From: a candidate division CSSED10-310 bacterium
GTDB lineage: Bacteria > CSSED10-310
Direction of reading: 5' to 3'
NCBI GenBank assembly: GCA_016927515.1
Contig: JAFGMN010000256.1
Span: forward strand, 1 to 56,120
Length of the DNA stretch: 56,120 nt
This document shows positions 3,257 to 50,121 of the stretch, piece after piece. Under the pieces are notes generated by a model. That model ran no database searches. It was not told the DNA's origin and worked only from the letters and a program-made list of their open reading frames with translations. How positions within the stretch are numbered: position 1 is the stretch's first letter; every line of letters starts with the position of its first letter. A program made the position numbers and the translations under genes.

Positions 3257-3307
3257 CTGCCGTTAACTCCTTTTTATCGATATTCTGACTGTTAACCCTC
3301 GGTAAAA

Positions 3308-3354: not shown

Positions 3355-3368
3355 TCCAACAAGACGCT

Positions 3369-4561: not shown

Positions 4562-4584
4562 AAATCCCCCTCGTCTCGCAAGAA

Positions 4585-5622: not shown

Positions 5623-5684
5623 GGCGCTATGTTACTCAAAGTCCCTTGACAGTTTCAAACGGTTTCATTGAAAATGCCGGCGTG

Positions 5685-10995: not shown

Positions 10996-11095
10996 GGCTG
11001 CCTCCTGTTCGTCCCGCACCGATTGCGGCCTATCATACGTGATCAATTATTCAATGTCATCCCGTTCGATCAAAGTGACCGGCTCGACACCCTCT

Positions 11096-11428
11096 TCACT
11101 CCACCACATTGTCCCGGATCAGTTTTTCAAAGGCCTGTTTCGGAGCCGCTCCCACATGACGGGCAACCGGTTTTCCGTTTTTGAACAAGATCAATGTCGG
11201 AATCCCAGAAACGCTGTATTGACGGGCCACATCACTGTTCTCGTCCACGTTCAATTTGAAGATTGTGACTTGTCCGGCCAGTGCAACGGCAATATCTTCA
11301 AGAATCGGAGTCACCATGCGGCAGGGACCGCACCAGGGAGCCCAGAAATCCACAACAATCAACCCATTTCCCGCAATCACCTTTTCCTGAAAATCGTCCA
11401 CACCAACCGCCTTTACATGCTCAGACAT
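11096..11428 (-). CDS. trxA: Thioredoxin
   Basis: DFWAPWCGPC active site, IPTL cis-Pro; GGAGG RBS. Confidence 0.95.
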   Translation of the reverse strand: MSEHVKAVGVDDFQEKVIAGNGLIVVDFWAPWCGPCRMVTPILEDIAVALAGQVTIFKLNVDENSDVARQYSVSGIPTLILFKNGKPVARHVGAAPKQAFEKLIRDNVVE

Positions 11429-11483
11429 ATTCTTCCTCCTTCCATGTTTCCGCTTGACCCGTCAGGTCGTCCCCGCCGACGAA

Positions 11484-12047
11484 TCATAACGGTAGATAAC
11501 GAACATCACCGGGTTGCAGAGAGCGCATATTATCCCGGTATATTTGTCTGATTCGTTGAAACACTTCGTCATACACAGCCGTCTTGAAATCCGGCAATGA
11601 CCACTCATACGGATGCCATCGGCCTTTCAGGTAAAACAACGTCGGATCCGCATAAATCCCACGGGACAGATAAATTTTCTGGGCCCGTTCCTTGACCGAA
11701 GCCAGAACCATTTTATAAAAATCCAGATATCCGGGGTCCAGATTCACCGGACGCCGTCCCTCCGAATCAGCAAACACTCCCTCCACCCGATTCGTCACAA
11801 TCTTGATTTCCGGGAGACACCCCGGATCCATTACCCGCTCGAAACTCCAGAAACATCGCCGAATGGAGTTCCCCATCTCCGCCGCATAGTAATCCGTCAA
11901 CGAAAAGAGATACTCGGGACTGGCATAATCGATCGGCCCTAACGCATCAACCAGCTGCTCCCGGACACGGTCCAGAACGTCCTGCGCAGATCCATACAGA
12001 AGTCCCGTGAAAAACTTCACGGGCTGGGGCAACCGGGGTCTTCCCAT
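11484..12047 (-). CDS. DUF4416 family protein
   Basis: TDYYAAEMG, RPVNLDPGYL, IYL..GIY, YEWSLPDF resemble DUF4416. Confidence 0.75.
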   Translation of the reverse strand: MGRPRLPQPVKFFTGLLYGSAQDVLDRVREQLVDALGPIDYASPEYLFSLTDYYAAEMGNSIRRCFWSFERVMDPGCLPEIKIVTNRVEGVFADSEGRRPVNLDPGYLDFYKMVLASVKERAQKIYLSRGIYADPTLFYLKGRWHPYEWSLPDFKTAVYDEVFQRIRQIYRDNMRSLQPGDVRYLPL

Positions 12048-12865
12048 TACGAACTCCTCTTCCGCGGCAACACGGCTTTGACATCGCCGACAATCGACCG
12101 GGCCTGTTCTACCAGGTCAAAGGCTATTCCGGTGTGCGCCGCAACCTGCCGATCGTAATCCTCCCGGATCGTATCCGAGCGACGGCCCGAACGATCCATC
12201 CATCGAATATGGCGGTCATGCAAATACATGCGTCCCTCGCCAGTCATCCGGGTAAACAGCAATGAATGCATCATGTTCCAGGAAAATGAATCGATCCAGT
12301 ATTGCCGGAATGTCTCCCGATCACAATCGGTTGCGTGGAGATGATATCGGTGTTTCGGACCGTCCGGTTCCAGCGTCACGAGATGCAGCCCTCCACCGGT
12401 ATCGCGCTCCAGACGAACCGGATGCAACCGTGTTTCGTGAACCGCAAAGCCGGTCTCGGGCAGTGGAAGAGGACGCGTGATTAAATATCCCGGATCCAGC
12501 AGATACTCCCGATCGTCGAACACAACTATCAATGCACAGTGATTATTGGCCGACCGGCCCAGATCCGCCATTCTGGGAGCACATCGATAACCATATGCCT
12601 CCAACACCATCTGCATGCAATACGTCAACGAAAAACACGTGCCTCCAGCCCCCAACTCGACAAACTCACGAAGAATATCCATCGGCATCCGCAACCGCTT
12701 GCCAGGATCCATCTCTCGAGCCGCACGAACAATTTTGCTTAAGTTTTCATACGGAATCAGCGCAAACTTGCCGGCAACCGTCTCCAAATGCTCCAGCGAA
12801 CACGGCTCGGTACCCACCGAAAAAACCCGTTCAAACTCCGCTGCCAGACATGCACCGATGATCAT
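12047..12865 (-). CDS. Arylamine N-acetyltransferase-like protein (Cys-His-Asp triad)
   Basis: IPYENL, GGTCF, NHCAL, YLLDPG. Start placed at the TGATG overlap with the upstream gene. Confidence 0.75.
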   Translation of the reverse strand: MIIGACLAAEFERVFSVGTEPCSLEHLETVAGKFALIPYENLSKIVRAAREMDPGKRLRMPMDILREFVELGAGGTCFSLTYCMQMVLEAYGYRCAPRMADLGRSANNHCALIVVFDDREYLLDPGYLITRPLPLPETGFAVHETRLHPVRLERDTGGGLHLVTLEPDGPKHRYHLHATDCDRETFRQYWIDSFSWNMMHSLLFTRMTGEGRMYLHDRHIRWMDRSGRRSDTIREDYDRQVAAHTGIAFDLVEQARSIVGDVKAVLPRKRSS

Positions 12866-14376
12866 CACCGCGGCTCCCCCCGCATAATCACGTTCCGGTT
12901 GTCCCGTCTGCTCCCCATTCGAAACATTAGACGTAAACCAGTCCGCTTCATCCACCGAAGGCATACACGCCCCCCCCGTTCCCAGCCGAAATCAAACAGA
13001 TGAAACAGGGCGACACACCAACAGGCGTGCCGGTGTTTGAGGAAAAACCGGATCAGTGTGCCGGGTGTTGTGTGAGTCAACCAGGTCAATCGATTCAGCA
13101 TCGTCGGTTGAATATCGAGATAGTTTTTATCCTCGGCCCGCATCATGCCTGTATTCCCTGTCAAATCCCGGGCCCGGTCATACAACGCTGTCCCGGGATA
13201 TAATGTCAGCGAAAACAGGTCCAGATGAAACGGTTTGTTTAGCCGGCTCAGTACGTGGACGGTCTCGGCCCGGTCGGCATCGGTTTCAAACGGATTATCC
13301 ACGATAACATCATAAGTACGAACCAACAGCCGATCCATGAATTCATCCAGCACGCCAGCCGCTCGGATGAAATCCGACACCGGTTCGTGACGGTGATAAA
13401 TTGTGCGTGATGTAGTATCCGAGCCTGACTGGAGCCCCATCTGAACGCCGATCAACCCGGCGTTGACCAGCATCTGCATGCGTTCTCGGCTCACCGATCG
13501 GGGATGAATCAGCACACCGAAACCGGCATTCACCGATGCGAATGCATCGCAAAAAGCCTCGATCCAACCGGGGGGTTTGAAAAAAAAGGAGTCATCCATG
13601 ATGGCGAATGCGTGACTGAATGGAAAATGATCGATGATATCGGTGATTTCCTTCATGAGATTCGCGACGGTACGAATGCGGATCGCATGTGCTTTTCCGA
13701 ATAGTGTCTGCAGGGCGCTGTTGCAGCAATACGTGCACTGATGAGGGCATCCTCTGGAGCTGATCACATAATGGCGGCCGTGGGACCACGGCATTTTCGT
13801 CCGAAAAAGAGTTTCGGATCCCGTGACAATGTGATCGCCTTCCAGGATAGCCTGGTGTGTCAGGTCATAATGAGGAGGGGGCCAGGCGTTCAAATCATCA
13901 ACGAGTTCCCGGCGACTCATATGAATGCCGTCATCCCGGCGATACCAGATATTGGGTATATCCGGCTGGGTCTGACCCGCACTCAATGCGCGCATCAGAG
14001 CTGGCACAGCCTCCTCACCGTCTCCTGCACAGACATAATCAGCGTGATCCAAACACGGCTCCGGCGCAAGAATCGGATGAATGCCTCCCCAGATAACCGG
14101 AATGGACAAACGATCCTGGATCGCCCGGGTCACATCGACGGCAAGAGAAAAATGGATCGACATCAGGCCCATGCCCACAAGTCCACAGGACTGTCCGTCA
14201 ATCCACTCGATTAACACATCCGTCTCCCGCTGCGACAACCGCTGCGACGGTTCCCGGCAGAGCCAGAGTATTTCCACGGAGATACCCGCTTGAACCGCCG
14301 CTGCCGCAACATAACGGACACCGAAATCAATGGTGGTGTTCTGCAGGGATATCAATGCCAGCCGAGGCGCATTCAT
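12865..14376 (-). CDS. Cobalamin-binding radical SAM protein
   Basis: N-terminal B12-binding region (VIWGGIHP, GDGE), SRGCPHQCTYC, GLQSGS, YPGT. Confidence 0.88.
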   Translation of the reverse strand: MNAPRLALISLQNTTIDFGVRYVAAAAVQAGISVEILWLCREPSQRLSQRETDVLIEWIDGQSCGLVGMGLMSIHFSLAVDVTRAIQDRLSIPVIWGGIHPILAPEPCLDHADYVCAGDGEEAVPALMRALSAGQTQPDIPNIWYRRDDGIHMSRRELVDDLNAWPPPHYDLTHQAILEGDHIVTGSETLFRTKMPWSHGRHYVISSRGCPHQCTYCCNSALQTLFGKAHAIRIRTVANLMKEITDIIDHFPFSHAFAIMDDSFFFKPPGWIEAFCDAFASVNAGFGVLIHPRSVSRERMQMLVNAGLIGVQMGLQSGSDTTSRTIYHRHEPVSDFIRAAGVLDEFMDRLLVRTYDVIVDNPFETDADRAETVHVLSRLNKPFHLDLFSLTLYPGTALYDRARDLTGNTGMMRAEDKNYLDIQPTMLNRLTWLTHTTPGTLIRFFLKHRHACWCVALFHLFDFGWERGGRVCLRWMKRTGLRLMFRMGSRRDNRNVIMRGEPR

Positions 14377-14538
14377 GGTCGGAGATCGTATCACAACCGG
14401 TAGCGGTTCGTCACATAATCTGCGGTCCCGGACCATCGTTCCGTCTCAGGATAAACCCGACCGGAAAAAAAATGATTGCATGAAGACGTATAAAATTTTA
14501 ATGTAATCCCGGCTGAATCAACAACATATGGGTGTAAG

Positions 14539-16941
14539 GTGCAGGAGGTCAACGAGGCCGTGGTAAAAATACTGCTTGTGGAAGCAAGCCAGAAAATTCA
14601 GAAACAGATGACGGATGCACTGGTCCGGGTTCGATTCAGCGTCGACTCCACCCAATGGGCGGAAGAAGCCCTGGCATTGGCGACCCGTCAGAGATTCGAT
14701 GCGGTGATGATTCATGACAATCTGACAGATATGCCCGCCTTGGATCTGATTCGGAATCTCCGGAAACAACTGCAGGACAATCAACTTCCCGTGATCATTG
14801 TGTATGGGAAATTCGATGCCAAGCACCGGATGGAAGTATGGCGAATCGGTGCCGACGATGTCATCGACATGCCGTTTGTTCTTCCAGAAGTCTTGCTCCG
14901 ACTGCATGTTCGCCTCCAAAAACGCGGTATCGTCAGGCACATCCCCGGATCGATCGAAGATATCGGCGAACCCGATACCGCACACGCGCCGGAAGGTCTG
15001 CCGTGTCACGGGTCGATTGAAACCCGGCCTCTCCCGGTTTGCCTGTCGATTCTGTTTCTGAACAAAGCGACGGGTATTCTGCGGTTTATCGAGGGCAAAC
15101 ATATCCGGTCATACTACTTTGAAAAGGGGTATATTCGGGGTACAAATTCATCAAAAAAGGAAGAAAATTTCGTCCGGTTGATGCAGAAATGGCTCGAGCC
15201 GCCCGGCGATATTCGAAAACACCTCAAATCGCTGTCGGATACGCTCTCGGATCGTGAGGCGGCAAAAACCGTCCGTCATCTGTGCGGATTGCAGGATCAA
15301 TCCATCGATGCCCTTGCCGTCCGGTATATGCATTATGTCGTCCAAGGATCCATCCACGCGGCCCGTGGCGAGTTCGACTGGTCTCCGGATGAGGTCCCCG
15401 AGGATATGCTGTTAGTTAGTTTCCGCGGTTTTCACCCGATCCATATATTGATGACCGTGATCCGGGACACGTCCCCGGTTGTGGATTACACACCGTTTAT
15501 CATCGGCAGAGACCTGTATTTAGCGCCGGGGACACGGGACGGGCGACTGCGTAATACGTATCGGATGACGGCACCGGAAGCATGCGTAACCGCGTTGACC
15601 GCTCAGGGCGTAACACTGGGTAACTGGTTGAAGCAAGCTGAAATCATTCTTCCCTATGCCAGTGCGTTCATTTACACAATGTTGCAGTTTCGCGTTTTTA
15701 CATGCACAGAGCGCAATGAATTGACTTCGGATGAAAAAGAGGCCGTGAGCTTGCCGGAGTTTGATTCGCCGGAAAACCTTGGAACAATGATCGATTCAGA
15801 TGAACAGGTTTCCGATGCTTCGGCGTTGGAAGAGAAGGAACCGGGGGTGGAGTCGGATCCTGTGATGATGGACCCAACGGATGAGACGCCAGCGCCGATG
15901 CCGAAAGTCCGGCCGGTCCCCACTGCGATAAGATCGGCCGGGGAGTCTATCGAGTATGATTCGGTTGTATCCGGGATAAGTCAATCCCAGGCGGAATCCG
16001 GTAAAAAGCCCGTAATGCCTTCCGGGGAAGCGACGATATCGTCGCGCGGAACAAAAGAGTCACTTGCCGCCAATAGATCCCGGAAAACGCAGCTCGAGCG
16101 GGAGTTGGACCGGTTCACCCAGCAGACAACTCCTCACGAGCGGTACAAACCTGCGACGACAGGGAGTGTCCCATCCAGAGAACCCCGATTCGTTCCGGAT
16201 GCGCTTGAATTCTTTGCCGTAAATCGCGATCGATTGGCAAACGGTCACACATGGGAAACCCATCCCGCCTTAATCTGTATAGTGATCATGCAATCGCAGC
16301 AGACGGGGATTCTCACCTTTCAGGATGCCGCCAGCGAATCCCGGCTTTACTGGCAAAACGGCCGTTTGGTATATGCAAAATCAACCAAACCACAACTCCG
16401 AATCGATCAGATCCTGTTCGATCTGGGAATGATCAATGCCGATCAAAAGGCCACGGCCAATGCTCTCTGGGAAGAATCCGGCGGAATGCGTTCGGGAACC
16501 ATGCTGTTCCGATTCAATATCGTCAATGTCATGGATTTGACCGAAGCGGTGAAAGAACAGATCCGGCTCATCATGATCGATGTCTGCAATATTCCAGCCG
16601 GTGACTATGACTTCAAGCCAGGGCCTCTGCCCCAGTCGGAGTATATTGCGTTCGACGTTTCCACGGAGCGGCTGTTAGTTCAGGGGATTCGGGAAATGGA
16701 TGATCTGGGGAATCTGCAGAAAGCCATACCGAGCCTCAACGTGAATATGGTTCAAAACACCGGCGCTATGGAAAGAGCCCAGGAAATGCACCTGGAAGGC
16801 ATCGATATTTCCATATTGAACCGCTTCAGAAAAGCCAATGCCATCAAATCCGCCTACGCCGGAATGGATATCAGCCTCCAATCATTCAAAAACACATTGG
16901 CCGGCCTCTATCTTCTAAACCTTCTGAAAATCGCGCTGTAA
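14539..16941 (+). CDS. Atypical receiver-domain protein with two DUF4388/PATAN-like domains
   Basis: N-terminal REC fold (GADDVIDMPF); two repeats of TGIL.F...(Y/W)..G (KATGILRF...YFEKG and QQTGILTF...YWQNG) separated by an acidic, Pro-rich linker. Confidence 0.7.
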   Translation: MQEVNEAVVKILLVEASQKIQKQMTDALVRVRFSVDSTQWAEEALALATRQRFDAVMIHDNLTDMPALDLIRNLRKQLQDNQLPVIIVYGKFDAKHRMEVWRIGADDVIDMPFVLPEVLLRLHVRLQKRGIVRHIPGSIEDIGEPDTAHAPEGLPCHGSIETRPLPVCLSILFLNKATGILRFIEGKHIRSYYFEKGYIRGTNSSKKEENFVRLMQKWLEPPGDIRKHLKSLSDTLSDREAAKTVRHLCGLQDQSIDALAVRYMHYVVQGSIHAARGEFDWSPDEVPEDMLLVSFRGFHPIHILMTVIRDTSPVVDYTPFIIGRDLYLAPGTRDGRLRNTYRMTAPEACVTALTAQGVTLGNWLKQAEIILPYASAFIYTMLQFRVFTCTERNELTSDEKEAVSLPEFDSPENLGTMIDSDEQVSDASALEEKEPGVESDPVMMDPTDETPAPMPKVRPVPTAIRSAGESIEYDSVVSGISQSQAESGKKPVMPSGEATISSRGTKESLAANRSRKTQLERELDRFTQQTTPHERYKPATTGSVPSREPRFVPDALEFFAVNRDRLANGHTWETHPALICIVIMQSQQTGILTFQDAASESRLYWQNGRLVYAKSTKPQLRIDQILFDLGMINADQKATANALWEESGGMRSGTMLFRFNIVNVMDLTEAVKEQIRLIMIDVCNIPAGDYDFKPGPLPQSEYIAFDVSTERLLVQGIREMDDLGNLQKAIPSLNVNMVQNTGAMERAQEMHLEGIDISILNRFRKANAIKSAYAGMDISLQSFKNTLAGLYLLNLLKIAL

Positions 16942-39487: not shown

Positions 39488-40210
39488 ATGAACGGGGCTT
39501 CACAAGATATGGAAATCCGCCTCCGCGATGATGGTCTGGCCATTCGGACAGACCGGGACGGCTATTGGTTCGGAAACGAAGTTTTAGAGCTAGTTGCCGC
39601 CATGGGTCACCGTACCTGGAATCGAGCGGTGGACTTGGGATGTGGTGATGGAGTCATTGCGCTTTTGCTAGCGCGTCGCGGCTTGGCCCGAGAAATCTGG
39701 GCAGTGGATATCGATGATGACCATTGTCGGCGAGCGGCGGTCAATATTGACACACATGGTCTGACCGGAATGATCCGGGTTTTCCGGAGAGATATCCGCC
39801 AGTTGCGAGGCATGCTACAGAAATCCTCAGTCGATCTGATTACAGCGAATCCCCCGTTTTTTCCGCTCGATCGGGATTTTTTACCCGTATCGGAAAGCGA
39901 GACCCATGCGCGCCAGGAAGTTAACGGCAATCTGAGGATTTTTCTACATGCCGCTGATTATCTGGCATCCCGCCGAGCGGACCTGTTTATGATCTATCAC
40001 CCCGGTCGCCTTGATGTTTTATTCTATGAGTTGCAATTGACCCGGTTCCGATGCAAATCTCTTCGTATACTCCACCATCGGGACGGCCGGGCGTTGTTTG
40101 TTATATGTCATGCCGCTAATCATGGAAAGCCGGGGATGCAGATCGAACCACCAATTACGATGGCGGACTCGATTAAAACATCGATGAAGGAATCACATCA
40201 TGGAGATTAA
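39488..40210 (+). CDS. SAM-dependent methyltransferase, tRNA1(Val) A37-N6 methyltransferase-like
   Basis: DLGCGDG, ANPPFF, ARQE, IYHP.RL. Start may be ATG 39509. Confidence 0.75.
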   Translation: MNGASQDMEIRLRDDGLAIRTDRDGYWFGNEVLELVAAMGHRTWNRAVDLGCGDGVIALLLARRGLAREIWAVDIDDDHCRRAAVNIDTHGLTGMIRVFRRDIRQLRGMLQKSSVDLITANPPFFPLDRDFLPVSESETHARQEVNGNLRIFLHAADYLASRRADLFMIYHPGRLDVLFYELQLTRFRCKSLRILHHRDGRALFVICHAANHGKPGMQIEPPITMADSIKTSMKESHHGD

Positions 40211-41699
40211 CCTCGCCGGAATGAACATTGACCATTCTCTGCTGCAGGACACGATCCGCCTGTTGCGGCGCGCAGCGGATTGCTTGACGCAGGAAAAACC
40301 CAATTTGCAGGAAAATCGACGGGTTGCCGATGCCATTTTTGCCCTATTGGATGCCGATAGCATGACGCCGGAAACACTCTCCGCTGCCTATGCCCGAATC
40401 AGCCGGGATCCTCGATCCGTCGATCAACTCCGGGAAGAATCCCGATATCGAGTAGGGAAGGCGCGCCGCTCCAACCGGACGATCATCTTCGGTCTCGGGC
40501 ATGCATCGGTCGCAGAGCATGCCGTTTTCAACCTGGATGTCATCGGTATCAGCCGGTATCTGTCCGAGTATATCCAGTCTCACCGGCTGGGTTCCTATAC
40601 GGAGAAGTCGCAGCGATACATTCGTCTGGACTCTGACTACACAATCCCTCCCGAGTTGATCGGAACACCACTGAGCCGGGATTTTGAGCAGTTCATTCAG
40701 CGGCGATTCGACGATTACCACGCGCTGTGCCGTATCATCGAGAAGGAATTGGATTCGGCGGAGCCCGACGTAGCCGGTGAAGATGCACGGTATGTTCTGC
40801 CCCTAGCGGTCACGACACAGATGGGGATGACAGTGAACGCTCGAACATTGGAGCGAATACTACAGAGAGCTGCTTCATCCGGTCTTCAGGAGTTCCAGGA
40901 ATGGGGTCGACGCGTCTTTTCGGTCATCGACGGTATTGCGCCCTCTATCATTAAATACACGGCACACTCCGATCGCCAGACAGCTATCGAAACCGCGCTT
41001 CGATCTTACCAATCGCGTGAGAAACCGGATCCGACAGCACCCGGAATCCGTCCACCGGTCCAACTGGTATCGGTCACTCCTGATGGTGACCGTCGGGTTG
41101 TCGAGGCTCTTTTGGCCGGATTATCGGGTCAATCCATTGGCGAAACGCACGAGTCGTTCCTCGATGATCCCGCAATTCGACGGCAGATTTTTCTAGATGT
41201 ATTCCGGGAGATGGAACCATGGGATCCACCTCCCCGGGAGTTCGAATTGGCGGATGCACAATTCGAATTGCTGATCAGTGCCGCTGCATATGCGCAGTTA
41301 AAACGCCATCGCATGGTCACGCTCCGGCCCGGACCCTATGATCCGCGTTTGGATATCACGATCCCTCCGGTATTGAAAGAGGGTCGGGGTGAAGTCATTC
41401 TTCGATCTGCGGCAGCAGAAAGCGCTGCGATAGCTCACCGCATGATGTGTCAGGCACCGCTGGCTGCACCTTACGCATTCTTGGCGTGTCACCGTCGGCG
41501 AATCATCATGAAAGTCAACGCCCGTGAACTGATTCACCTTTCGCGATTGCGGGAGGATGTACATGCGCAATGGGATATCCGGGAAATTGTTACTGCGATG
41601 GTCACTCTTGCGAGAGCGCAGCTACCTGGCTGTATGATCGCAGCATGTGGTAAACACGCGTTCGAAGCATACCGGCAATCGCTGGGAATTTCATCCTGA
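40200..41699 (+). CDS. thyX: FAD-dependent thymidylate synthase, tandem two-domain ThyX
   Basis: GHASVAEHA, SYTEKSQRY, EDARYVLP, NAR.L; second domain with QLKRHR, NARELIH..RLR...HAQWDIR. Confidence 0.88.
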   Translation: MEINLAGMNIDHSLLQDTIRLLRRAADCLTQEKPNLQENRRVADAIFALLDADSMTPETLSAAYARISRDPRSVDQLREESRYRVGKARRSNRTIIFGLGHASVAEHAVFNLDVIGISRYLSEYIQSHRLGSYTEKSQRYIRLDSDYTIPPELIGTPLSRDFEQFIQRRFDDYHALCRIIEKELDSAEPDVAGEDARYVLPLAVTTQMGMTVNARTLERILQRAASSGLQEFQEWGRRVFSVIDGIAPSIIKYTAHSDRQTAIETALRSYQSREKPDPTAPGIRPPVQLVSVTPDGDRRVVEALLAGLSGQSIGETHESFLDDPAIRRQIFLDVFREMEPWDPPPREFELADAQFELLISAAAYAQLKRHRMVTLRPGPYDPRLDITIPPVLKEGRGEVILRSAAAESAAIAHRMMCQAPLAAPYAFLACHRRRIIMKVNARELIHLSRLREDVHAQWDIREIVTAMVTLARAQLPGCMIAACGKHAFEAYRQSLGISS

Positions 41700-42249: not shown

Positions 42250-42418
42250 ATTCTTAGACACACATTCTCTGGGTAAAACGACGGCGTATCCAGATGGTCC
42301 AATGGGTGCATTATCGGCCGCAGCACGTCAGGGAAAGGGTGGGCGTGTCCACAACGGTAGGTGCGATACGCTTGGTCGCAACCATGAAAGCCTAACTATA
42401 TTTTCAGCGCCAGAACAC

Positions 42419-42447
42419 AAAAAAACCCCGGCCGAAGGCCGGGGTTT
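42419..42447 (-). terminator. Rho-independent terminator
   Basis: AAACCCCGGCC-ttc-GGCCGGGG followed by T7, just after the 42470 stop. Confidence 0.9.
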
Positions 42448-42469
42448 CCATACGATTCTTCTGATCGAA

Positions 42470-42892
42470 TTACATGCCGTAGGGGTTGCCGGGCATAACA
42501 ATCGTGTAGCCGGGCTGACCGCCGCCGGTGGCAACCAGGTTCGCGAACACCGCGCCCCACAGATAGATCTCGTCTTCGGTGGCCTGGATGTCATAGTTTC
42601 CGAAACCGTAGTTGTCGCCGATATCATACCAAGCTTCAGCGGTGCCGGGCTGCCAGGCAGCGCCAGCATTCACGGTGGCGGTGGTGGAGATCAGCCAGTT
42701 GCCGGTTGCGCCGTCGAACAGGTTGATGGTAACGGTGGCGGGCTGGGTGCCGGCGTTAACGATTGACCAGAAACCCTGGATCGAGAAGCCATGCTGCCAG
42801 AAGGGGAAAGGAACTGTTTCATCGGTCAAAGCCACATTGGCCATCAGGCCGAACACCAGAACCATCGCGATCGCTACGAATGCTTTCTTCAT
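42470..42892 (-). CDS. Small secreted beta-rich protein (140 aa), unknown function
   Basis: AAGGAG RBS, Sec signal MKKAFVAIAMVLVFGLMANVALT-DE, own terminator, conserved paralog next door. Confidence 0.85.
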   Translation of the reverse strand: MKKAFVAIAMVLVFGLMANVALTDETVPFPFWQHGFSIQGFWSIVNAGTQPATVTINLFDGATGNWLISTTATVNAGAAWQPGTAEAWYDIGDNYGFGNYDIQATEDEIYLWGAVFANLVATGGGQPGYTIVMPGNPYGM

Positions 42893-42952
42893 TTTGAAAC
42901 TCCTTTTAATAAGGTGATTAAAAATCTGAGGGTTTCTCCCTCTCTCGCACCG

Positions 42953-42981
42953 TATAAACCGGTGAGGTTCCCAATGGTTCC
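42953..42981 (-). promoter_or_regulatory. Putative ECF-sigma promoter
   Basis: GGAAC-N16-GGTTTATA, about 60 nt upstream of the ATG. Confidence 0.55.
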
Positions 42982-43033
42982 CTAAAAAAAATCTTTTTCC
43001 GCGACCCCCCCGTCCTTTGTCTTTTCTACCCCG

Positions 43034-43067
43034 AAAAAAAGAACCTCCGGTCTTGGACCGGAGGTTC
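43034..43067 (-). terminator. Rho-independent terminator
   Basis: 12-bp perfect stem GAACCTCCGGTC/GACCGGAGGTTC followed by T7 on the minus strand, after the peptidase gene. Confidence 0.9.
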
Positions 43068-43105
43068 CATCCTGCATCTTCAATCCGAAACATTCAGAGG
43101 CTGAT

Positions 43106-45655
43106 TTACAGCGGATCTACACAGCTTTGGCTTCCCAGCGCCGTCATGAAAATCTGCTGTGCATCACCTGCTGTGATGCTCTCATCGCCGTTACAGTCAG
43201 CACTGCAGGCCTCTTGATACGAGGGCGAATATGAACCCAGAGCGATCTGAAACGCCAGTTGGGCATCACCGGCCGTAATGGCGTCATCGTCGTTGACATC
43301 ACCGTTGTTCACGCATTCATTCGGAGTCCAGGTCGGAACCGGGGTCGGCGTCACTTCAGGCAGCGATTTTCCGCAAATCGAAATGTCATCGATGTAGTAA
43401 CCGTAATCGACAACCGACGTGTCGGTTTCCAGCCGCCATCGCACGTAGACCGCCGGCTGACCATCAGCCACTCCCGAAATGTCAAAAATCTGTTCCGTCC
43501 AGACCGTATCTTGCGCATAACCGGTCCAAACCACTGTCCAAGTCTGATTGTCAGAGGAAACCTCAACATATGCTTCATCCCAGTTTTCTTCATTCTGGAG
43601 CCATCGGTAAAAATGCAGTTCCGTATCCGTAATCGTCGAACAGTCGAACGGGGTCGACGTGAGCTTGTATGTCGCATTGTTGCTGTAATTACCATCAAGG
43701 TTCGTTCCGTAACAGGTTGTTCCGCTGTAAGGTGAAGAGGGACCAGCAACAGGCTGGCCAAACTCCCAGCCATTGGACCCACTGTTTTCAATGGTGTAAC
43801 CGGGATCGCTGTCCAACGTTTCCAGATACAACGGGCATTGCCAGACATACCGGGAAATCACGACTCGAATCACGCTGGATTCGGCGCACAACACCTGATC
43901 CGCTGAAAAGGTTACCATCAATTCCGCAACATATTCATCGGGTGCAGATGGCGATGCCTGAATCTGGAAATGAGGCAACTGTGTTGTCCCCGTTCCGCCA
44001 TCAGGAATGTTTCCGATGACGGCACTCCCATCCAAAATGACAATATATGGATCCGATGATGTGAGTGCTGCCTGAACATTCGTCGTCGAACCAATCGAAG
44101 TAGCAGTCAACGCCAGATTGGCGGTTTCACCCGGATCGAGAACCCCATCGTCATCCCCCTGCGTATCAATAATCTGCTGATTGACGGGGAAAACGCCGTA
44201 ACTACCGGTTGGAACCAGCATAATGTCCTGATCGAGCTGGCTGCTCCCCACCATCACCGGCAGAACCGTGTCACCGTACCCGGCTGCACTGGCGACCAAC
44301 GTATAATCACCGGACACAACGGGCCACCAGTACCGGCCGAATGCATCGGTTACACGGGGAAGTTCGTCGGCTGTCAGCGGAATTTCTTGAAGACCGAATT
44401 CGGCACCTTCGATCGGCACCCCCGTGCAGGCATCGAGAATGTGCCCCGTTAGGAGCGGTCCTTCCATCCGATTCAGCAGATACTGCCATCCGGCGCGGTT
44501 ACGTTGCACGGTCGAATCTCGCCACTGATTGTAATTCGGAAGAAAACCCTGTGACATCGAATTCACTTCGATCACGTAGGCGAAAGTTCCCAGATCCGTA
44601 TAATACCAATCGATATCACCGCCGTCGGTTGCATACAGCAGTTCCCAACACGTGCCTGGAGAATATCCCATGGTGCCGCTGTCGCATTCGATGACCGAGG
44701 CGATACCCTGTCCGATCGCCGACACCGCGTCATGATCGGGAGTTATCTCACCATCGCAGCCGTACGGGTAGATCACCAGTTCGGAATAGGAATGATAGGA
44801 GATGTCGAAAACGGGTTTGATTGTCGATGCAAACGTGATCATATTCGTTACGCAGTAACTTTCGGCGGGGAACTGCCCCCGGTACGTATCGCTGGACGGG
44901 CTTCCGGAACTGCCGTTGCAGGAACCCCAGAACGACGGGTAATTCCGATTGGGATCGATTCCGTAATAGGATGATCCTGACGGTGGATCGTGGCGATCTT
45001 TCCGCCAATCATCGTTATTGGTGAAAACGTATTCCACGCCGTCAAGATTTACCTGGGGAACAACCCAGATTTCATACGTATCTACCCAGTGCGTGACCTG
45101 CGGATCCGTTCCGTAGTTCGTCAGCAGATAATCGACGATATCCGTCGTAATCTCCGCCGTCATCACCTCCCGGGCATGATGTTGACCGTTAAACAGAATC
45201 GCCAGTTCATCTTCATCGGTATCGGCGTTGTCGGAAATTTTAATCGCGATCATTGACCGTCCCTGTTCCGTATCACCGATCGTGACCAGTTGTGTCAAAT
45301 CCGGGTACGTATCGGCGAGTTGAGTGATCAGGGCAGTCATTTCCGCCGGTTGCAGATACTGCGGATCGACTTTCACGCCATCGCCGGGCACTCGGATCAC
45401 GTCGACCGTATACCGTTTTTCCAGATCCAGCAGCGTTTCTTCCGAAACAACCAGACCGATCCGGAATGTCTCCCGATCCACTCCCGCCAGATCGAGATGC
45501 ATCGTCTGAACGTCTTTCAGGGCCGCCGCAAAAGCTTCCTTATCAGGACAAACCAATTGCACCTGATACCGATTTTCCGATTCCGTCGCAGCCACACCAG
45601 CAACAGAAAGCGCGAGAATAAACGCAAGCGATATCACCAACACTGTCTTTGTCAT
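43106..45655 (-). CDS. Secreted M14 zinc carboxypeptidase (carboxypeptidase T-like) with accessory beta domains and C-terminal dockerin-like domain
   Basis: Signal peptide, HHARE, WRKD, GIDPNRNY, SYHSY, YVIEV; PT linker; GDVNDDDAITAGDAQ...ADCNGDESITAGDAQ duplicated Ca-binding loops. Confidence 0.88.
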   Translation of the reverse strand: MTKTVLVISLAFILALSVAGVAATESENRYQVQLVCPDKEAFAAALKDVQTMHLDLAGVDRETFRIGLVVSEETLLDLEKRYTVDVIRVPGDGVKVDPQYLQPAEMTALITQLADTYPDLTQLVTIGDTEQGRSMIAIKISDNADTDEDELAILFNGQHHAREVMTAEITTDIVDYLLTNYGTDPQVTHWVDTYEIWVVPQVNLDGVEYVFTNNDDWRKDRHDPPSGSSYYGIDPNRNYPSFWGSCNGSSGSPSSDTYRGQFPAESYCVTNMITFASTIKPVFDISYHSYSELVIYPYGCDGEITPDHDAVSAIGQGIASVIECDSGTMGYSPGTCWELLYATDGGDIDWYYTDLGTFAYVIEVNSMSQGFLPNYNQWRDSTVQRNRAGWQYLLNRMEGPLLTGHILDACTGVPIEGAEFGLQEIPLTADELPRVTDAFGRYWWPVVSGDYTLVASAAGYGDTVLPVMVGSSQLDQDIMLVPTGSYGVFPVNQQIIDTQGDDDGVLDPGETANLALTATSIGSTTNVQAALTSSDPYIVILDGSAVIGNIPDGGTGTTQLPHFQIQASPSAPDEYVAELMVTFSADQVLCAESSVIRVVISRYVWQCPLYLETLDSDPGYTIENSGSNGWEFGQPVAGPSSPYSGTTCYGTNLDGNYSNNATYKLTSTPFDCSTITDTELHFYRWLQNEENWDEAYVEVSSDNQTWTVVWTGYAQDTVWTEQIFDISGVADGQPAVYVRWRLETDTSVVDYGYYIDDISICGKSLPEVTPTPVPTWTPNECVNNGDVNDDDAITAGDAQLAFQIALGSYSPSYQEACSADCNGDESITAGDAQQIFMTALGSQSCVDPL

Positions 45656-45721
45656 TTTCTCCCCCTTGATTCAGAAATAGTGATTCCGGGCATGCACCGG
45701 ACTTGTTTCGGGCATTACCTT

Positions 45722-45738
45722 TGCAAAAAACGGGCCGA
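45722..45738 (-). promoter_or_regulatory. Putative sigma54 (-24/-12) promoter
   Basis: tcGGcccgttttttGCa: GG-N10-GC with TTGCA, about 67 nt upstream of the ATG. Confidence 0.55.
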
Positions 45739-45821
45739 AAATGGAACAGGCTTCCGATTTTCAATTACCGGAAGCCTGCTGATCCGTTATTTTCTGATAT
45801 CACTCAGATGTCAACAGGGCG

Positions 45822-48800
45822 CTATTGTACATCATCAAACAGAGCCATTACTTGAATTCGGGGTGTCTCCCGATTCAGGGTGGAAAAGCCAGCTATCGAA
45901 TCGAACACAAGATGGGCAATGATGCCGTGCGACCCGGATGGGATACCGGCTTGATCCGGTGTTCCCACGCTGTAACCGCCGATGCGGAGTCGATTTCCAG
46001 GGAGTTCCTGAGAATCAAACTCCACCCAGCCTGGATCCAGATCACCGGGATATGCATCGATCAGACGCAAACAGGATGCATCGTAAGCCAGTTCGATCAG
46101 GAATGCATCAATGGGTTTGTGGTTATCGGATATCCGGACTTCGACATTCCACTGGTTTCCATTTGGCCGCACCGAACCCACGGTGACCGTTCTCTCCTCT
46201 GCAGCGAGTTCTTTCCTGATTCCCCTTCCCATGATTCGAGGTAACGGATCCAGGCAAGACGAGCTTCCCAGGGCAGTCAGGAAAACACCCTGCGCATCTC
46301 CGGCCGTCACTTCGCTGTCGCCGTTGCAATCCGCAGCGCAGAACTCGACCTGAGTCGGCGTATACGCACCCAGTGCGATCAGGAACGTGGTTTGTGCATC
46401 TCCGGCCGTCACCTCGCCATCAGCGTTGACATCGCCATGGTGCAGGCATCCCGATGTCGAGGTGGGTGTCGGTGAGGGAGTGCTGGTCGGCGGCAAGGTC
46501 GGCGTTGGTTGAACCTGTCCAGCTCCCTCCGCCAGTCCACAGATCCAAACGTCATCGATGTAATGACCGGCCTGGCTGATCGACGAGTCCGCCCGGACAT
46601 CGAAGCGGAGTTCGACCTGCGGTTCATCATCCGCCCATGCGGATATATCCAGTTCCCGCCATTGCCATCCACCGGAACTGCCGTCTTCATCCAGGATGGT
46701 CACCCAGGATCCTCCGTCACTCCTGATCCGGACCCGGGCGTGATCATAGGAATTTTCAACTTCGTAATACTGAGCAAACTTCAGTGCCACTTCCGTGACA
46801 TTGGAACAATCGATGGGAGGAGATGTCAGGCATAGTGTCCAGTTGTTATCGTAATTCCCGGCCAGTCCCGTGCCATAGACGTATAATCCCGTATAGGCTC
46901 CGTCAGGGCCCACCTGCGGTTCACCGAATTCCCAGTTGTTATAGGGTCCCGGCGGAGAACCGGACGTGGGGTACGATGTGATTTCCCATCCCGGATCGGC
47001 ATTGAAGTTTTGTTCCCAGAATGGACACATGTAGTTGATCGAAAACACGCGGACAAACGTCGTGTCCTCCGGGTCGCAGAGTGTCTGATCACATGAAAAT
47101 GTTACGGTCAGGTACGCTTGATGATACTCCGGAGTCCCCGCCGCTGCCGTAACCCGAAACCGATTGGCCGGACAATATGCGCCCCCTCCGGATGGAAGGT
47201 CTACCCATGCTGCACTGTTGTCGGTGATCGTGATATAGGGATCCGTTGTCGACAAGATTCCCGTGATTCCCGATACAGGGGCTCCCGGAGCCCAGATGGC
47301 CATATTCAGATAGGCCGTTTCCCCCGGATCCAACTGACCATCGTTGTCACCGGCCTGATCCTCGATCACCACCGCCCAGACTGCCAGACCGGGTTCGTCG
47401 GTGGGCAACAACCCGATATCGTAAGTGATCGGACCGGTCCCAAACAGCACGGGCACACGTCGCGAAAGATAACCGTCCGCCTCAACTATCAAATTCAATG
47501 TGCCAGCGTGTCCGACTGCCGTATAGAAGCCGGTCACCGGGTTGTTTTGCCGCGGCGATTCCTTTGGCGTCAGAGGATATTCCTCAAAGTAATACGTCGC
47601 CTGAACCGGCTGACCGGTGCAGGCGTCGGTGATCGTCCCTTGCACGATCGGTCCGGTTTCATAGAGATCCAGCACGTTCTGCCAGCCCGCCCGGTTTCGG
47701 GTAACCGTCGTGTTTCGGATCGAATACGCCGGGTAATAACTCGAGGCATTGACCTCCACCGCCATCGCCAAGCTACCAAACCCGGCATAAAAATAATCCG
47801 TCTCGTTACCATCATTGTTATACAGAATCTGCCACCATGCTCCGCTGTCATATCCATATCCGCCATCTTCCCGTTGAATCACCGCTCCCATGGAGCCAGC
47901 GAAACTGGACAGAATTCCAGCTTCCGGCGCTGATTCCCCCCAGCAGCCATACGGATACATGATCAACTCGTTAAAACTGTGATACGAGATCACCGCAGTG
48001 AAGGCATGATTCTGAGCCAGCGTCATGATTCCCTGGATCTCCGGCTCCGATCCGGGAGCAGTCCCGCGATAGCCACTGGAATTGGGATCCGATGAAGATC
48101 CAAAACACGCTCCCCAGTCGACATCGTAATTATGCCCCAGCGCAACGCCAAACACATCCCCACCCAACTCACGCCGATTCTTGATCCAATACTGATCCGT
48201 CGACCAACAATACGCGCTGCCGTCAGGATTCAGCATCGGAACAATCCAGATCTGCCACGAATTGACCCAATTCGTGACATCCGGGTTCGATCCGTAATTT
48301 TCCGCCAGGTAGATCGCCATATCCATCGCAATCTCCGTACTCATGATCTCCCGCGCTTCATGCAAACCCAAGACGAGAACTTCCGGTTCCTCCTCCTGAA
48401 CCAGAACATTGTCGGATATTTTCACCGCCCAAACCGTCCGGTTCTCCGCCGTAACCGCCAACTCATACCGCTTGACAATCGACGGGTAGGTCGTTTGCAG
48501 ATTGTTCAGCACATTCATGACCTCCGCATAATCATAATACTGAGGATCAATATCCCTATTACTTTCGACATCCTCTGCGGAACGGACCTCCGTCCAAGAC
48601 AATCCCATCTCATCCAGGATCTGCCGACCGTCGTCCGTCATCAACACATCCACGGAAAAGCGTTCCCGATCCAAACCAATCCGATCCACATGGTCACGGA
48701 TCGCCGGACCATGCTCCTTCATCACCATCTGATAATCCTTCAGCGATATCTCGGCAACACATCGCGACGATGCTTCCACCGAAATCCCAAACCCCATTCC

Positions 48801-48836
48801 AATCAGCAATCCAATTAGACACGTCAGTTTTCTCAT
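45822..48836 (-). CDS. Secreted M14 carboxypeptidase-like protein (degenerate active site) with dockerin-like and cohesin-like C-terminal domains
   Basis: Colinear paralog of 43106-45655; HEARE, WIKN, GVALGHNY; GDVNADGEVTAGDAQ...ADCNGDSEVTAGDAQ; then a beta-sandwich V.V.I....IDAF..EL.YD...G.L...RIGG....G.IA.L.F. Confidence 0.82.
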   Translation of the reverse strand: MRKLTCLIGLLIGMGFGISVEASSRCVAEISLKDYQMVMKEHGPAIRDHVDRIGLDRERFSVDVLMTDDGRQILDEMGLSWTEVRSAEDVESNRDIDPQYYDYAEVMNVLNNLQTTYPSIVKRYELAVTAENRTVWAVKISDNVLVQEEEPEVLVLGLHEAREIMSTEIAMDMAIYLAENYGSNPDVTNWVNSWQIWIVPMLNPDGSAYCWSTDQYWIKNRRELGGDVFGVALGHNYDVDWGACFGSSSDPNSSGYRGTAPGSEPEIQGIMTLAQNHAFTAVISYHSFNELIMYPYGCWGESAPEAGILSSFAGSMGAVIQREDGGYGYDSGAWWQILYNNDGNETDYFYAGFGSLAMAVEVNASSYYPAYSIRNTTVTRNRAGWQNVLDLYETGPIVQGTITDACTGQPVQATYYFEEYPLTPKESPRQNNPVTGFYTAVGHAGTLNLIVEADGYLSRRVPVLFGTGPITYDIGLLPTDEPGLAVWAVVIEDQAGDNDGQLDPGETAYLNMAIWAPGAPVSGITGILSTTDPYITITDNSAAWVDLPSGGGAYCPANRFRVTAAAGTPEYHQAYLTVTFSCDQTLCDPEDTTFVRVFSINYMCPFWEQNFNADPGWEITSYPTSGSPPGPYNNWEFGEPQVGPDGAYTGLYVYGTGLAGNYDNNWTLCLTSPPIDCSNVTEVALKFAQYYEVENSYDHARVRIRSDGGSWVTILDEDGSSGGWQWRELDISAWADDEPQVELRFDVRADSSISQAGHYIDDVWICGLAEGAGQVQPTPTLPPTSTPSPTPTSTSGCLHHGDVNADGEVTAGDAQTTFLIALGAYTPTQVEFCAADCNGDSEVTAGDAQGVFLTALGSSSCLDPLPRIMGRGIRKELAAEERTVTVGSVRPNGNQWNVEVRISDNHKPIDAFLIELAYDASCLRLIDAYPGDLDPGWVEFDSQELPGNRLRIGGYSVGTPDQAGIPSGSHGIIAHLVFDSIAGFSTLNRETPRIQVMALFDDVQ

Positions 48837-48893
48837 ACTTTTCCCCTGGATAGACGACATTGACAGAGTGATTACCTCCACGGCGCCGAAACT

Positions 48894-48910
48894 TGCAAAA
48901 ACAATGCCGT
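48894..48910 (-). promoter_or_regulatory. Putative sigma54 (-24/-12) promoter
   Basis: acGGCAttgtttTTGCA: GG-N10-GC, about 58 nt upstream of ATG 48836. Confidence 0.6.
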
Positions 48911-49062
48911 ATCACCTCTCGTCCGCTGTTTCGACCCGGAACCACATTCATTGCCACCCGCCGCCATCTTGAACTCCTGTCGTATTCAGAATATGATCAT
49001 GCAACGTGCCCACGCTCAAATCAGCAGGGCAAAACGGTTCACGCCGGAAGGGGGAAACAATC

Positions 49063-50121
49063 ATGAAGCGTGGTATTCTAACATCATTTTGGATCGGTAC
49101 CGTCATGCTCGTCGGATGCAGGCAATCTTCGCCTTCCGTCCCCACGATGACAGAAACCTGGACACTCATCGGACCAAGCGGAATGTCAGAAATACGACAC
49201 CTGACAGTCCTTCCGGATTCCAACCGCCTGGTTGCATGCGGCGTCCCGGTTGTTTCGGAAACAGGATTACGCCTGTATGATATAGAAACGGAACAATGGA
49301 CGGTTCCACGTGACGGTCTTCCAGCAGATCAGACCGTGATTATGTCCACACGCCACGGTTCCGATCTCATCGCCGTTGTGTTTTCACGGGAAAACGGCAG
49401 CGGACGTCTCGCGGTCAGTCATGATGCCGGGATAACATGGCCGGATTCCATTCCCCTTCCAGAAGCCGCCGACCCGCGATGCCTGCTGATCCGTGAAGAT
49501 TCAAGCACATCCTGGATTCTGGGAACCGTTAACACCGGACTGTATCTATCCGACGACCTCGGCACGACGTGGACCCAACCGGACACACCACCAGATAATC
49601 CCGGAATTCAATGCATCATCGCCGATCCCAGCCACCCCGATCATCTCCTCACCGGCACCCGAATCGGAATCTGGGAAAGCAATGATAGTGGTAAAAACTG
49701 GATCGAAATCACCAGCCGACTCGTGCAAAACCCGGTGTTCATCGTGGATATCGTCGCCCATCCGCGGAAAACCGGCTGTTTTTTGAGTATTTTCCGCTCC
49801 GAAACCGGAACCGCTTCGGTCATGATTACGTTGGACGGAGCTGCAACCTGGACATCGGTTCAAAATGGTCTGTATGCAGACTCGCAACCTCGATGTATCG
49901 CATTTCATCCAACCCGCGAATCCCGCCTGTTCATGGGTACTGTGTACGACGGTGTTTACGCCAGCGATGACCTCGGTACGCAATGGTATCCCATCAATTC
50001 CGGACTTCCGATGAACAAACCCATCATCGTTCACAGTCTGAACTGCACGGGTGACGCCACTGCTGTCCTACGGGCTGGAACCAACCTCGACGGTCACGCT
50101 TTTCAATTGATCAATCAGTGA
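49063..50121 (+). CDS. BNR/Asp-box beta-propeller lipoprotein
   Basis: Lipobox LVGC; repeated S.D.G.TW motifs (SHDAGITW, SDDLGTTW, SNDSGKNW, TLDGAATW, SDDLGTQW). Confidence 0.8.
   Translation: MKRGILTSFWIGTVMLVGCRQSSPSVPTMTETWTLIGPSGMSEIRHLTVLPDSNRLVACGVPVVSETGLRLYDIETEQWTVPRDGLPADQTVIMSTRHGSDLIAVVFSRENGSGRLAVSHDAGITWPDSIPLPEAADPRCLLIREDSSTSWILGTVNTGLYLSDDLGTTWTQPDTPPDNPGIQCIIADPSHPDHLLTGTRIGIWESNDSGKNWIEITSRLVQNPVFIVDIVAHPRKTGCFLSIFRSETGTASVMITLDGAATWTSVQNGLYADSQPRCIAFHPTRESRLFMGTVYDGVYASDDLGTQWYPINSGLPMNKPIIVHSLNCTGDATAVLRAGTNLDGHAFQLINQ

Follow-up and report, generated by a model that had tools for sequence, protein, structure and literature searches.

That an enzyme or adaptor carrying both a cohesin and a dockerin should recruit further enzymes is not new in kind, with an experimental precedent in Ruminococcus bromii Amy4 and genomic ones in the planctosome of freshwater Planctomycetes and in Ca. 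Stygibacter (Cloacimonadota). We describe here two neighboring genes, A and B, in a 56,120-nucleotide stretch of DNA from a candidate division CSSED10-310 bacterium (the window; positions 1 to 56,120, forward strand, of contig JAFGMN010000256.1, assembly GCA_016927515.1). Both genes encode M14-fold proteins with predicted signal peptides and dockerins, and B ends in a cohesin. Outside cellulose breakdown, cohesin-dockerin systems have come to light mainly through surveys of genomes, and very few have been tested; this lineage offers a compact and rich case, with about 60 plugs (dockerins) and at least 15 sockets (cohesins) in a 3.5-Mb genome and a recognizable cargo dominated by peptidases.

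In the R. bromii amylosome the enzyme Amy4 combines both module types, and recombinant modules and a pull-down showed that its cohesin binds the dockerins of Amy9, Amy10 and Amy4 itself; Amy4 is also able to dock on an anchored scaffoldin, and peptidase-bearing dockerins are among the ligands of the system (PMC4611034). B resembles Amy4 in that a single secreted polypeptide joins a domain of catalytic type to both docking modules. However, Amy4 is an active GH13 amylase whereas B is an M14 homolog with a degenerate site, and the module that closes the chain is a dockerin in Amy4 but, in B, a truncated cohesin placed after the dockerin. Sortase anchors the R. bromii system, whereas no sortase was found in the 78%-complete source genome, and binding has been measured for Amy4 but is predicted from genes and fold for B.

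The planctosome is a hypothetical polypeptide-degrading cohesin-dockerin complex in which a protein with a single module of each kind would serve as the adaptor for zinc peptidases, namely M12B peptidases and M14 carboxypeptidases (PMC6461901). That adaptor is non-enzymatic (it has a hyalin repeat) whereas the adaptor proposed here is itself M14-like, and the planctosome as described there is small in comparison with the 57 dockerins and at least 15 cohesins of the source genome, both systems being deduced from genomes. The uncultured anaerobe Ca. Stygibacter has C-terminal dockerins on gingipain-like C25 peptidases, S8 peptidases and a GH18 chitinase, together with a single 3,755-residue scaffoldin that combines tandem cohesins, the carbohydrate-binding modules CBM2/CBM3 and a C-terminal domain of the type IX secretion system (T9SS) type; enzyme-borne terminal cohesins are not reported in the available text of that study (PMC8542988). 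The scaffoldins here are, by contrast, short (one to three cohesins in the source genome, up to five in relatives) and have at their C-terminus either a hydrophobic helix or a domain that matches no family model. Peptidases also appear as cellulosome cargo in a 2025 review (PMC12484212).

With the clostridial and ruminococcal cellulosomes (the 1ohz and 5nrm pairs) the present system shares the folds, the duplicated calcium loops and the hierarchy of scaffoldin, adaptor and enzyme, and it has both a multi-cohesin scaffoldin (a three-cohesin open reading frame (ORF) on contig C261) and many dockerins (57). It differs from them in the four conserved cysteines of the dockerin, in a terminal cohesin without the last strand, in a cargo that is mainly peptidases and not dominated by plant-cell-wall glycoside hydrolases, and in a three-cohesin scaffoldin that matches no cellulose-binding module: glycoside hydrolases occur in 3 of the 56 dockerin ORFs, and CBM3 is absent from the 25 commonest families of these ORFs. 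The system is cellulosome-like, and is not a cellulosome. In the glycosidase complexes of the Gram-positive pathogen Clostridium perfringens, non-cellulosomal enzyme-borne cohesins pair secreted hydrolases; these cohesins are from a different subgroup (structural alignment Z scores of 11.0-11.6 to the B domain, against 13-14 for type I cohesins) and serve glycosidases, not peptidases. The features in which the system appears to be a variant of those already described are a four-cysteine dockerin confined to few assemblies, a recurrent tail of dockerin and truncated cohesin, a pseudo-M14 protein carrying that tail, and a system of this scale in so small a genome.

Our preferred interpretation, to which we give a probability of roughly 0.62, is that A and B are parts of a cohesin-dockerin system, not of the cellulosomal kind, that holds exported hydrolases, mainly peptidases, together, probably on the cell surface. 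The modules are genuine, the set of dockerins, cohesins and scaffoldins is large, and the recognizable cargo is mostly peptidases, making a largely proteolytic non-cellulosomal network the best reading. A and B would be exported through Sec signal peptides, and their type I calcium-loop dockerins would plug, probably in a calcium-dependent manner, into cohesins carried by an anchored three-cohesin scaffoldin, by proteins ending in a lineage-specific C-terminal domain, by small adaptors and by enzyme C-termini. B would dock through its own dockerin and present one further socket, its terminal type-I-like cohesin. It would thereby act as a valency-neutral adaptor that passes the docking site on to any dockerin-bearing protein, A being one candidate ligand among about 50.

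Modules of the two M14-fold proteins

The initial annotation had recognized two tandem secreted M14 paralogs, each with a Pro/Thr-rich linker and a duplicated four-cysteine calcium-loop module, and a cohesin-like beta-sandwich at the end of B. Both genes are present as ORFs at 43106-45655 (A) and 45822-48836 (B, with an ATG at 48836), with the following features.

45822-48836, minus strand: gene B, predicted secreted M14-fold protein with dockerin and terminal cohesin (ORF list, Pfam)
48765-48836, minus strand: B, predicted Sec signal peptide (MRK, hydrophobic stretch, VEA/SS; judged from the translation)
47709-48515, minus strand: B, M14-like domain with degenerate active site (Pfam Peptidase_M14, E 1.4e-53)
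46545-46823, minus strand: B, InhA-like MAM domain ahead of the anchor modules (PF20773, 30.7 bits, cut-off 26.9)
46449-46511, minus strand: B, Pro/Thr-rich linker, limits approximate (translation)
46242-46463, minus strand: B, four-cysteine type I dockerin (Pfam Dockerin_1; genome-specific hidden Markov model (HMM), E 1.1e-33)
46212-46241, minus strand: B, 10-residue linker between the dockerin and cohesin envelopes (HMM limits)
45825-46211, minus strand: B, terminal cohesin, type-I-like, eight strands, without the last canonical strand (homology and fold)
43106-45655, minus strand: gene A, predicted secreted canonical M14 carboxypeptidase with C-terminal dockerin, 849 residues (ORF, Pfam)
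44522-45340, minus strand: A, M14 catalytic domain, residues 106-378 (Pfam, E 8.4e-64; carboxypeptidase T, E 3.8e-50)
44240-44452, minus strand: A, CarboxypepD_reg beta-sandwich (Pfam, 33.0 bits, cut-off 32.3)
43109-43330, minus strand: A, four-cysteine type I dockerin at the extreme C-terminus, after a Pro/Thr linker (Pfam; genome-specific HMM, E 1.2e-35)

From the ATG at 48836 B is 1004 residues long, which is the form held in the public database; an in-frame upstream GTG at 48881 would give 1019 residues (45822-48881). The signal peptides of both proteins were judged by eye from the translations rather than by a predictor, the N-terminus of A being a signal-peptide-like segment.

The duplicated modules are dockerins in both proteins. 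Full-length Pfam scans place Dockerin_1 (PF00404) at residues 785-834 of A (28.4 bits) and 815-864 of B (27.7 bits), above the cut-off of 22.9, and the modules scanned in isolation score 34.1 bits (A) and 30.0 bits (B). Reading of the sequences confirms the module described in the initial annotation: behind a Pro/Thr-rich linker lie two D-x-N-x-D...D calcium loops, each followed by TAGDAQ (DVNADGEVTAGD and DCNGDSEVTAGD in B, DVNDDDAITAGD and DCNGDESITAGD in A), and the dockerin of A terminates in CVDPL directly before the stop codon. The modules have the organization of type I dockerins, with two segments of ~22 residues, each a 12-residue loop plus helix, and a three-helix fold. In the AlphaFold2 model of B the helices lie at 24-35, 42-48 and 58-68, with predicted local distance difference test (pLDDT) values >95, and the module superposes on the C. 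thermocellum dockerin 8x39_A with a Z score of 9.4 and a root mean square deviation (rmsd) of 1.6 Å over 65 residues (VIA-align). The two half-repeats are near-identical by sequence count, agreeing at 15 of 23 positions in B and 14 of 23 in A; near-identical recognition helices in both repeats are a trait of dual-binding-mode dockerins.

Four cysteines occupy equivalent positions in the A and B dockerins, and all four are present in 129 of 141 aligned modules (57 from the source genome and 84 from other genomes), a conservation beyond chance. Five modules without Cys1 and Cys2 retain Cys3 and Cys4, and this joint loss suggests the pairs 1-2 and 3-4. In the canonical dockerin geometry, however, Cys1 lies near Cys4 and Cys2 near Cys3. 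The loss pattern and this geometry thus disagree as to pairing, and we consider the dockerins to be possibly stabilized by their cysteines. The titles and abstract openings examined of papers on dockerins, cohesins and disulfides mention no natural cysteine-stabilized bacterial dockerin, which does not prove that there is none.

The terminal domain of B is a cohesin, as judged by transitive homology and by fold. A search of the Protein Data Bank (PDB) sequences gave a weak match to the Clostridium acetobutylicum cohesin 6kg8 (E 0.08). In the six-frame ORFs of the source genome, phmmer matched the tail to proteins on contigs C253 (3.5e-20), C261 (3.1e-12), C243 (5e-11), C120 (6.2e-10) and C282 (2.2e-6), and the ORFs so matched are those that Pfam Cohesin matches. 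The Pfam check suggested by the initial annotation was in this way borne out directly for Dockerin_1 in A and B but, for Cohesin, on the relatives of the B tail and not on the tail itself. Of 1.84 billion database representatives, 168 are related to the tail at E ≤ 1e-3, 31 of them at E ≤ 1e-10, and all 9 of the top-scoring relatives scanned are multi-module Pfam Cohesin proteins.

Structure prediction gives the same answer. Single-sequence AlphaFold2 of the dockerin-cohesin region was unusable (pLDDT 35), and an alignment-based model (53 rows) was taken instead. This has a mean pLDDT of 88.2 and consists of the three-helix dockerin, a low-confidence linker (model residues 82-93, pLDDT <50) and an eight-strand sandwich with pLDDT >90 over most of its length; the predicted template modeling score (pTM) of the whole is 0.58. 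The top Foldseek matches of the terminal domain are cohesins throughout. By VIA-align type I cohesins fill the first 20 rows (20/20), and they align with Z scores of 13-14.3 and an rmsd of ~2.4 Å over 116-122 residues; the best is 5nrm_A (Z 14.3, rmsd 2.4 Å, 120 residues). Scores are lower for the Archaeoglobus non-cellulosomal cohesin (Z 11.9), the enzyme-borne C. perfringens cohesins 2jh2, 2vo8 and 2w1n (Z 11.0-11.6) and type II cohesins (Z about 10-10.7). Homology to established cohesins and a superposable jelly-roll beta-sandwich are thus both in evidence, and the cohesin-like sandwich proposed in the initial annotation has a cohesin fold, so that the first ground named there for its refutation does not hold. 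Complex prediction for the B cohesin with the A dockerin, run without controls, gave a median score of 0.31 against a mark of 0.32, a value that favors neither binding nor its absence.

The M14 domains of the two proteins differ in their active sites (numbering as in carboxypeptidase T, alignment reference 1obr). A keeps the zinc ligands His69, Glu72 and His204 together with Arg129, Asn146, Arg147, Tyr255 and Glu277, and so has all eight residues of an active M14 carboxypeptidase. B does not: the zinc ligand His69 is replaced by Glu, and the carboxylate-binding Asn146-Arg147 by Gly-His. In an alignment of 14 paralogs and orthologs from the phylum, position 69 is Gln or Glu and positions 146-147 are [Gly/Ala]-His in 9 of 9 B-clade sequences, with the further losses His204 to Asn in 4 of the 9 and Glu277 to Gln in 1 of the 9, whereas 4 of 4 A-clade sequences are canonical at all eight residues. 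B is an M14 homolog with a non-canonical, probably inactive site, a degeneration found in its whole clade, and is probably a non-catalytic adaptor. The M14 fold of both proteins stands as annotated, but they are only 39% identical; they belong to two old clades and did not arise by recent tandem duplication. A predicted active enzyme and a pseudo-enzyme with a socket would make a clean natural pair.

B-type genes with >50% identity to the B query were found only in the relatives G004, G009, G010, G003 and G002, and a full-length B query against genome_contigs found no relative. In most B-clade orthologs a C-terminal domain matching no family model replaces the dockerin-cohesin pair, and the G004 ortholog ends in a dockerin only. 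The differing tails suggest that what follows the MAM-like domain is an interchangeable anchor.

Dockerins, cohesins and cargo in the source genome

The source genome comprises 3.46 Mb in 360 contigs and is 78% complete. Pfam Dockerin_1 has 50 matches in it (44 over cut-off) and Pfam Cohesin 8 (5 over cut-off). With HMMs iterated on the genome's own modules the count rises to 57 dockerins, spread over 56 ORFs, and 15 cohesins, spread over 12, so that the genome-wide count of dockerin tails and scaffoldins called for in the initial annotation returns a large set that includes a three-cohesin scaffoldin. Two over-cut-off Pfam Cohesin matches, C356:31-252 (32.3 bits) and C73:6924-7193 (26.4 bits), are absent from the family HMM set, making 15 cohesins a lower bound; these two may represent a second class of cohesin in the genome.

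Most of the near-full dockerins are C-terminal, 41 of 53 ending ≤6 residues from the stop codon, typically as CxDPL followed by the stop. Of the remaining 12, 6 precede a cohesin, and at all six of these junctions the linker is 9-16 residues long. The scaffoldin on C261 (16334-17725) has 464 residues, a signal peptide, three cohesins and a C-terminal hydrophobic helix plus RRR, ending LPVTDRCGRVVLIVVVSALMIASRRR, and Cohesin is its sole Pfam match. Single-cohesin proteins on C120 and C282 end in a Pro/Thr linker and the C-terminal domain without a family model. Small adaptors have the orders cohesin-dockerin (C83) and dockerin-cohesin-dockerin (C94), a lectin-like protein on C253 has the order cohesin-dockerin-cohesin, and three enzyme-type proteins end in dockerin then cohesin, namely B and Peptidase_C25 proteins on C10 and C354. 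Besides the three-cohesin scaffoldin, the 20-kb contig C261 encodes one degenerate protein of the dockerin-cohesin type, three that carry dockerins and two that bear the C-terminal domain lacking a family model; the scaffoldin with its neighbors at 2807-16314 looks like a scaffoldin gene cluster.

Pfam searches of the 56 dockerin ORFs (E ≤ 1e-5) identify as cargo Peptidase_C25 (7 ORFs), M14 (4), Beta_helix (4), FG-GAP_3 (4), C1 (2), S8 (2), GH18 (2), PAD_porph (1), GH44 (1) and a PETase-like family (1). With peptidase families on 15 of the 56, peptidases are the largest recognizable class of cargo.

The dockerin-bearing proteins include seven gingipain-like C25 peptidases and a peptidylarginine deiminase of the Porphyromonas type (PAD_porph, E 5.6e-51). 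In Porphyromonas the combination of this deiminase with gingipain-type C25 peptidases is T9SS cargo; here these enzymes appear to be attached by dockerins instead. The SprA model has 0 matches in the source genome and likewise 0 in the control genomes, and so is uninformative.

The C-terminal domain that matches no family model is ~115 residues long and ends ...FGY or ...FGW (4051-4500 at the C184 locus, 724-1113 at the C120 locus, 2176-2565 at the C282 locus). One un-iterated HMM search gave 87 matches at E ≤ 1e-3 in the source genome, mostly at the very end of long, exported-looking ORFs; the domain is also the last one in the B-clade M14 orthologs, in two of the genome's cohesin proteins and in 16 database proteins with several cohesins. 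Searches of Pfam and NCBIfam yielded no meaningful match, and the best score in the ESM Atlas, 0.84, was uninformative. As the domain sits where T9SS sorting domains sit elsewhere, it may have a sorting or anchoring role particular to this lineage.

The dockerin-cohesin tail

Cohesins that follow a dockerin are truncated. In 14 of 15 such cohesins the chain ends 0-14 residues past a conserved DD, without the GxF[TA][YF] segment that is present in 15 of 15 other cohesins and that, in a scaffoldin cohesin, aligns to the final positions of the Pfam Cohesin model. The structural alignments of the B cohesin stop 6-22 residues short of the ends of the reference chains, indicating that the last canonical strand is absent. 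In solved cohesins this strand pairs with strand 1. The B model contains every strand of the sheet on which cohesins usually bind dockerins, the 8-3-6-5 sheet. Read-through of the TAG stop of B as a means of restoring the missing strand was considered and rejected, there being more stops downstream and no motif. On a maximum-likelihood tree of cohesins the label 'after a dockerin' requires 4 changes, whereas shuffled labels need 10.4 (1 of 500 shuffles as low), and the B cohesin groups with four other after-dockerin cohesins (support 87/89) in a tree that is poorly resolved at depth. The terminal truncated cohesins form a distinct subclass.

One consequence could be that the terminal domain of B has given up its role as a socket and is now a spacer, a stabilizer or a ligand-binding beta-sandwich, the dockerin alone being functional and anchoring B as cargo. 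The lack of a direct Pfam Cohesin match and of the GxF[TA][YF] end in 14 of the 15 after-dockerin cohesins would fit this, as would the carbohydrate-binding modules 1exg and 3ndy_E among the weaker structural matches. However, the best of these modules reaches only Z 9.1, against 13-14 for type I cohesins; the motifs VDAF, PGW, IGG[FY], IP.GS.G and DD of the family are retained in the B cohesin when aligned with bona fide scaffoldin cohesins; and the truncated subclass is conserved across genomes and so under selection. We give the loss of socket function little chance. Far less probable still is that the last strand is supplied in trans by another protein as a second, non-dockerin mode of assembly: the conserved absence of an edge strand is the sole point in its favor, whereas no segment that could act as a donor was found, the stop codon of B is not read through, and many beta-sandwiches tolerate an open edge.

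The constant adjacency of dockerin and cohesin, with linkers of 9-16 residues in this genome, raises the question of whether the dockerin of B folds onto the neighboring cohesin and caps both modules, either stabilizing the protein or keeping it inert until displaced or cleaved. A truncated subclass would be compatible with a specialized partner in cis. On the other hand, tandem dockerins are not set apart from the rest, the B module being matched by the common HMM at E 1.1e-33 and having the same four cysteines and TAGDAQ; the want of confident domain packing in the AlphaFold2 model (pTM 0.58, linker pLDDT <50) is a weak argument in the same direction. Such a latch seems to us decidedly unlikely.

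The same lack of fixed intramolecular packing leaves room for binding in trans, and B might associate only with itself, its cohesin taking the dockerin of another B to form head-to-tail dimers or polymers without recruiting A or other proteins. Binding of its own dockerin by the Amy4 cohesin (PMC4611034) provides a precedent, and the tail recurs on the large Peptidase_C25 proteins on C10 and C354 and in 75 of 150 database representatives. But the 57 dockerins differ little from one another (in 30 of them the mean column identity is 67%), and a cohesin that accepts the dockerin of B would probably accept many. We regard exclusive self-association as unlikely.

The system is conserved in the lineage. 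The four-cysteine dockerin profile matches 12 of 14 species genomes sampled from the phylum and the cohesin profile 10 of the 14; all six family genomes have the system, with 22-70 dockerins and 9-31 cohesins each, and ORFs with 4-5 cohesins occur among them. A pattern scan of 185,579 species genomes gave 216 dockerin matches, of which 139 were confirmed, in a handful of assemblies. The confirmed loci are mostly titled 'uncultured bacterium', one being labeled Kiritimatiellae and seven uncultured Myxococcales. In the 80 of these 139 loci that were retained there are 84 dockerins, with a cohesin following a dockerin in 9 tandems and preceding one in 2 pairs.

A re-scan of 150 database representatives from the B-tail search, a sample biased by a query that is itself a dockerin-adjacent cohesin, found cohesins in 149 and dockerins in 85. 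The dockerin-then-cohesin junction occurs in 75, of which 50 are cohesin-dockerin-cohesin; the chain ends ≤20 residues past the last cohesin, as in B, in 21, of which 3 are from the source genome. A motif test finds a T9SS-like tail in 34 of the 150, and 7 of 9 such proteins scanned pass the NCBIfam TIGR04183 (T9SS type A) cut-off, the other 2 falling just below it. The exact pattern X-cohesin-dockerin-cohesin-T9SS sorting domain is seen in 32 of the 150; the dockerins of these proteins are Cys-rich, with other Cys patterns.

These recurrent architectures invite a more far-reaching proposal, which we offer tentatively and regard as having a modest chance of being right: that the dockerin-then-truncated-cohesin tail is a valency-neutral extension unit which, with cohesin-dockerin-cohesin as a branching unit, forms a new assembly grammar of uncultured bacteria. 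Each docked protein would return one socket, so that peptidases and dead relatives such as B could daisy-chain on an anchored scaffoldin, while cohesin-dockerin-cohesin would gain one socket per docking and give rise to branched surface networks. As far as the searches show, such a grammar is undescribed, though the supplements of the planctosome and Stygibacter papers may list similar architectures. If the tail does pass on a docking site, it would explain how sediment bacteria build extracellular protein-degrading assemblies, and would provide protein engineers with a small, self-extending connector, possibly cysteine-stabilized. Should the B cohesin fail to bind, the conservation of the truncated form would have to be accounted for in some other way.

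Several observations weigh against our preferred interpretation of a largely proteolytic network. About 30 of the 56 dockerin ORFs have no recognizable catalytic family, and 'proteolytic' describes the recognizable part of the cargo only. As to surface anchoring, no sortase was found in the 78%-complete source genome, the exosortase family has one match only, and PorU has only below-cut-off matches arising from similarity to C25 domains. No Pfam family, Cohesin (PF00963) included, matches the isolated terminal domain of B at E ≤ 10, and without its last strand the domain is less certain to be a competent socket than the scaffoldin cohesins are. Cohesin-dockerin binding, including that by the B cohesin, is something that we infer. 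A and B lie outside any scaffoldin cluster, among the housekeeping neighbors ThyX, lipoyl synthase and an Hsp70-like gene. Finally, no B-type gene adjoins an A-type gene in relatives among the loci examined; their adjacency is not conserved, which leaves the neighborhood of the two genes as the argument for a specific B-A pairing. The extracellular proteolytic complex envisaged in the initial annotation is therefore supported as regards a matching set of modules and a peptidase-rich cargo, but not as regards specific recruitment of A by B.

Surroundings of genes A and B

Two hairpin features flank gene A.

45723-45778, minus strand: B-A intergenic 10-bp inverted repeat with a 12-nt loop, then a T-rich run (sequence inspection)
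43040-43068, minus strand: terminator-like hairpin directly 3' of A, 13 pairs then a T run (hairpin scan)

The intergenic repeat is a possible terminator; it is not called by a consensus terminator scan, the loop limit of which is 8 as against the 12 nt of the repeat. The source sequencing run is labeled 'sediment metagenome', and two metatranscriptome contig sets from the same study have 0 contigs on 42400-49100.

Just downstream of A lies a small ORF (42470-42895, minus strand) with a signal-peptide-like start, MKKAFVAIAMVLVFGLMANVAL, and 0 Pfam matches; it is flanked by strong terminator-like hairpins at 43040-43068 and 42421-42449. Upstream of B and divergent from it is an ORF of the Sortilin/BNR beta-propeller type (49006-50121, plus strand; PF15902, 46.9 bits). 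The ThyX-family ORF at 40200-41699 (plus strand) matches Thy1 over two separate stretches and, at 499 residues, is roughly double the normal length; it may thus encode an internally duplicated thymidylate synthase.

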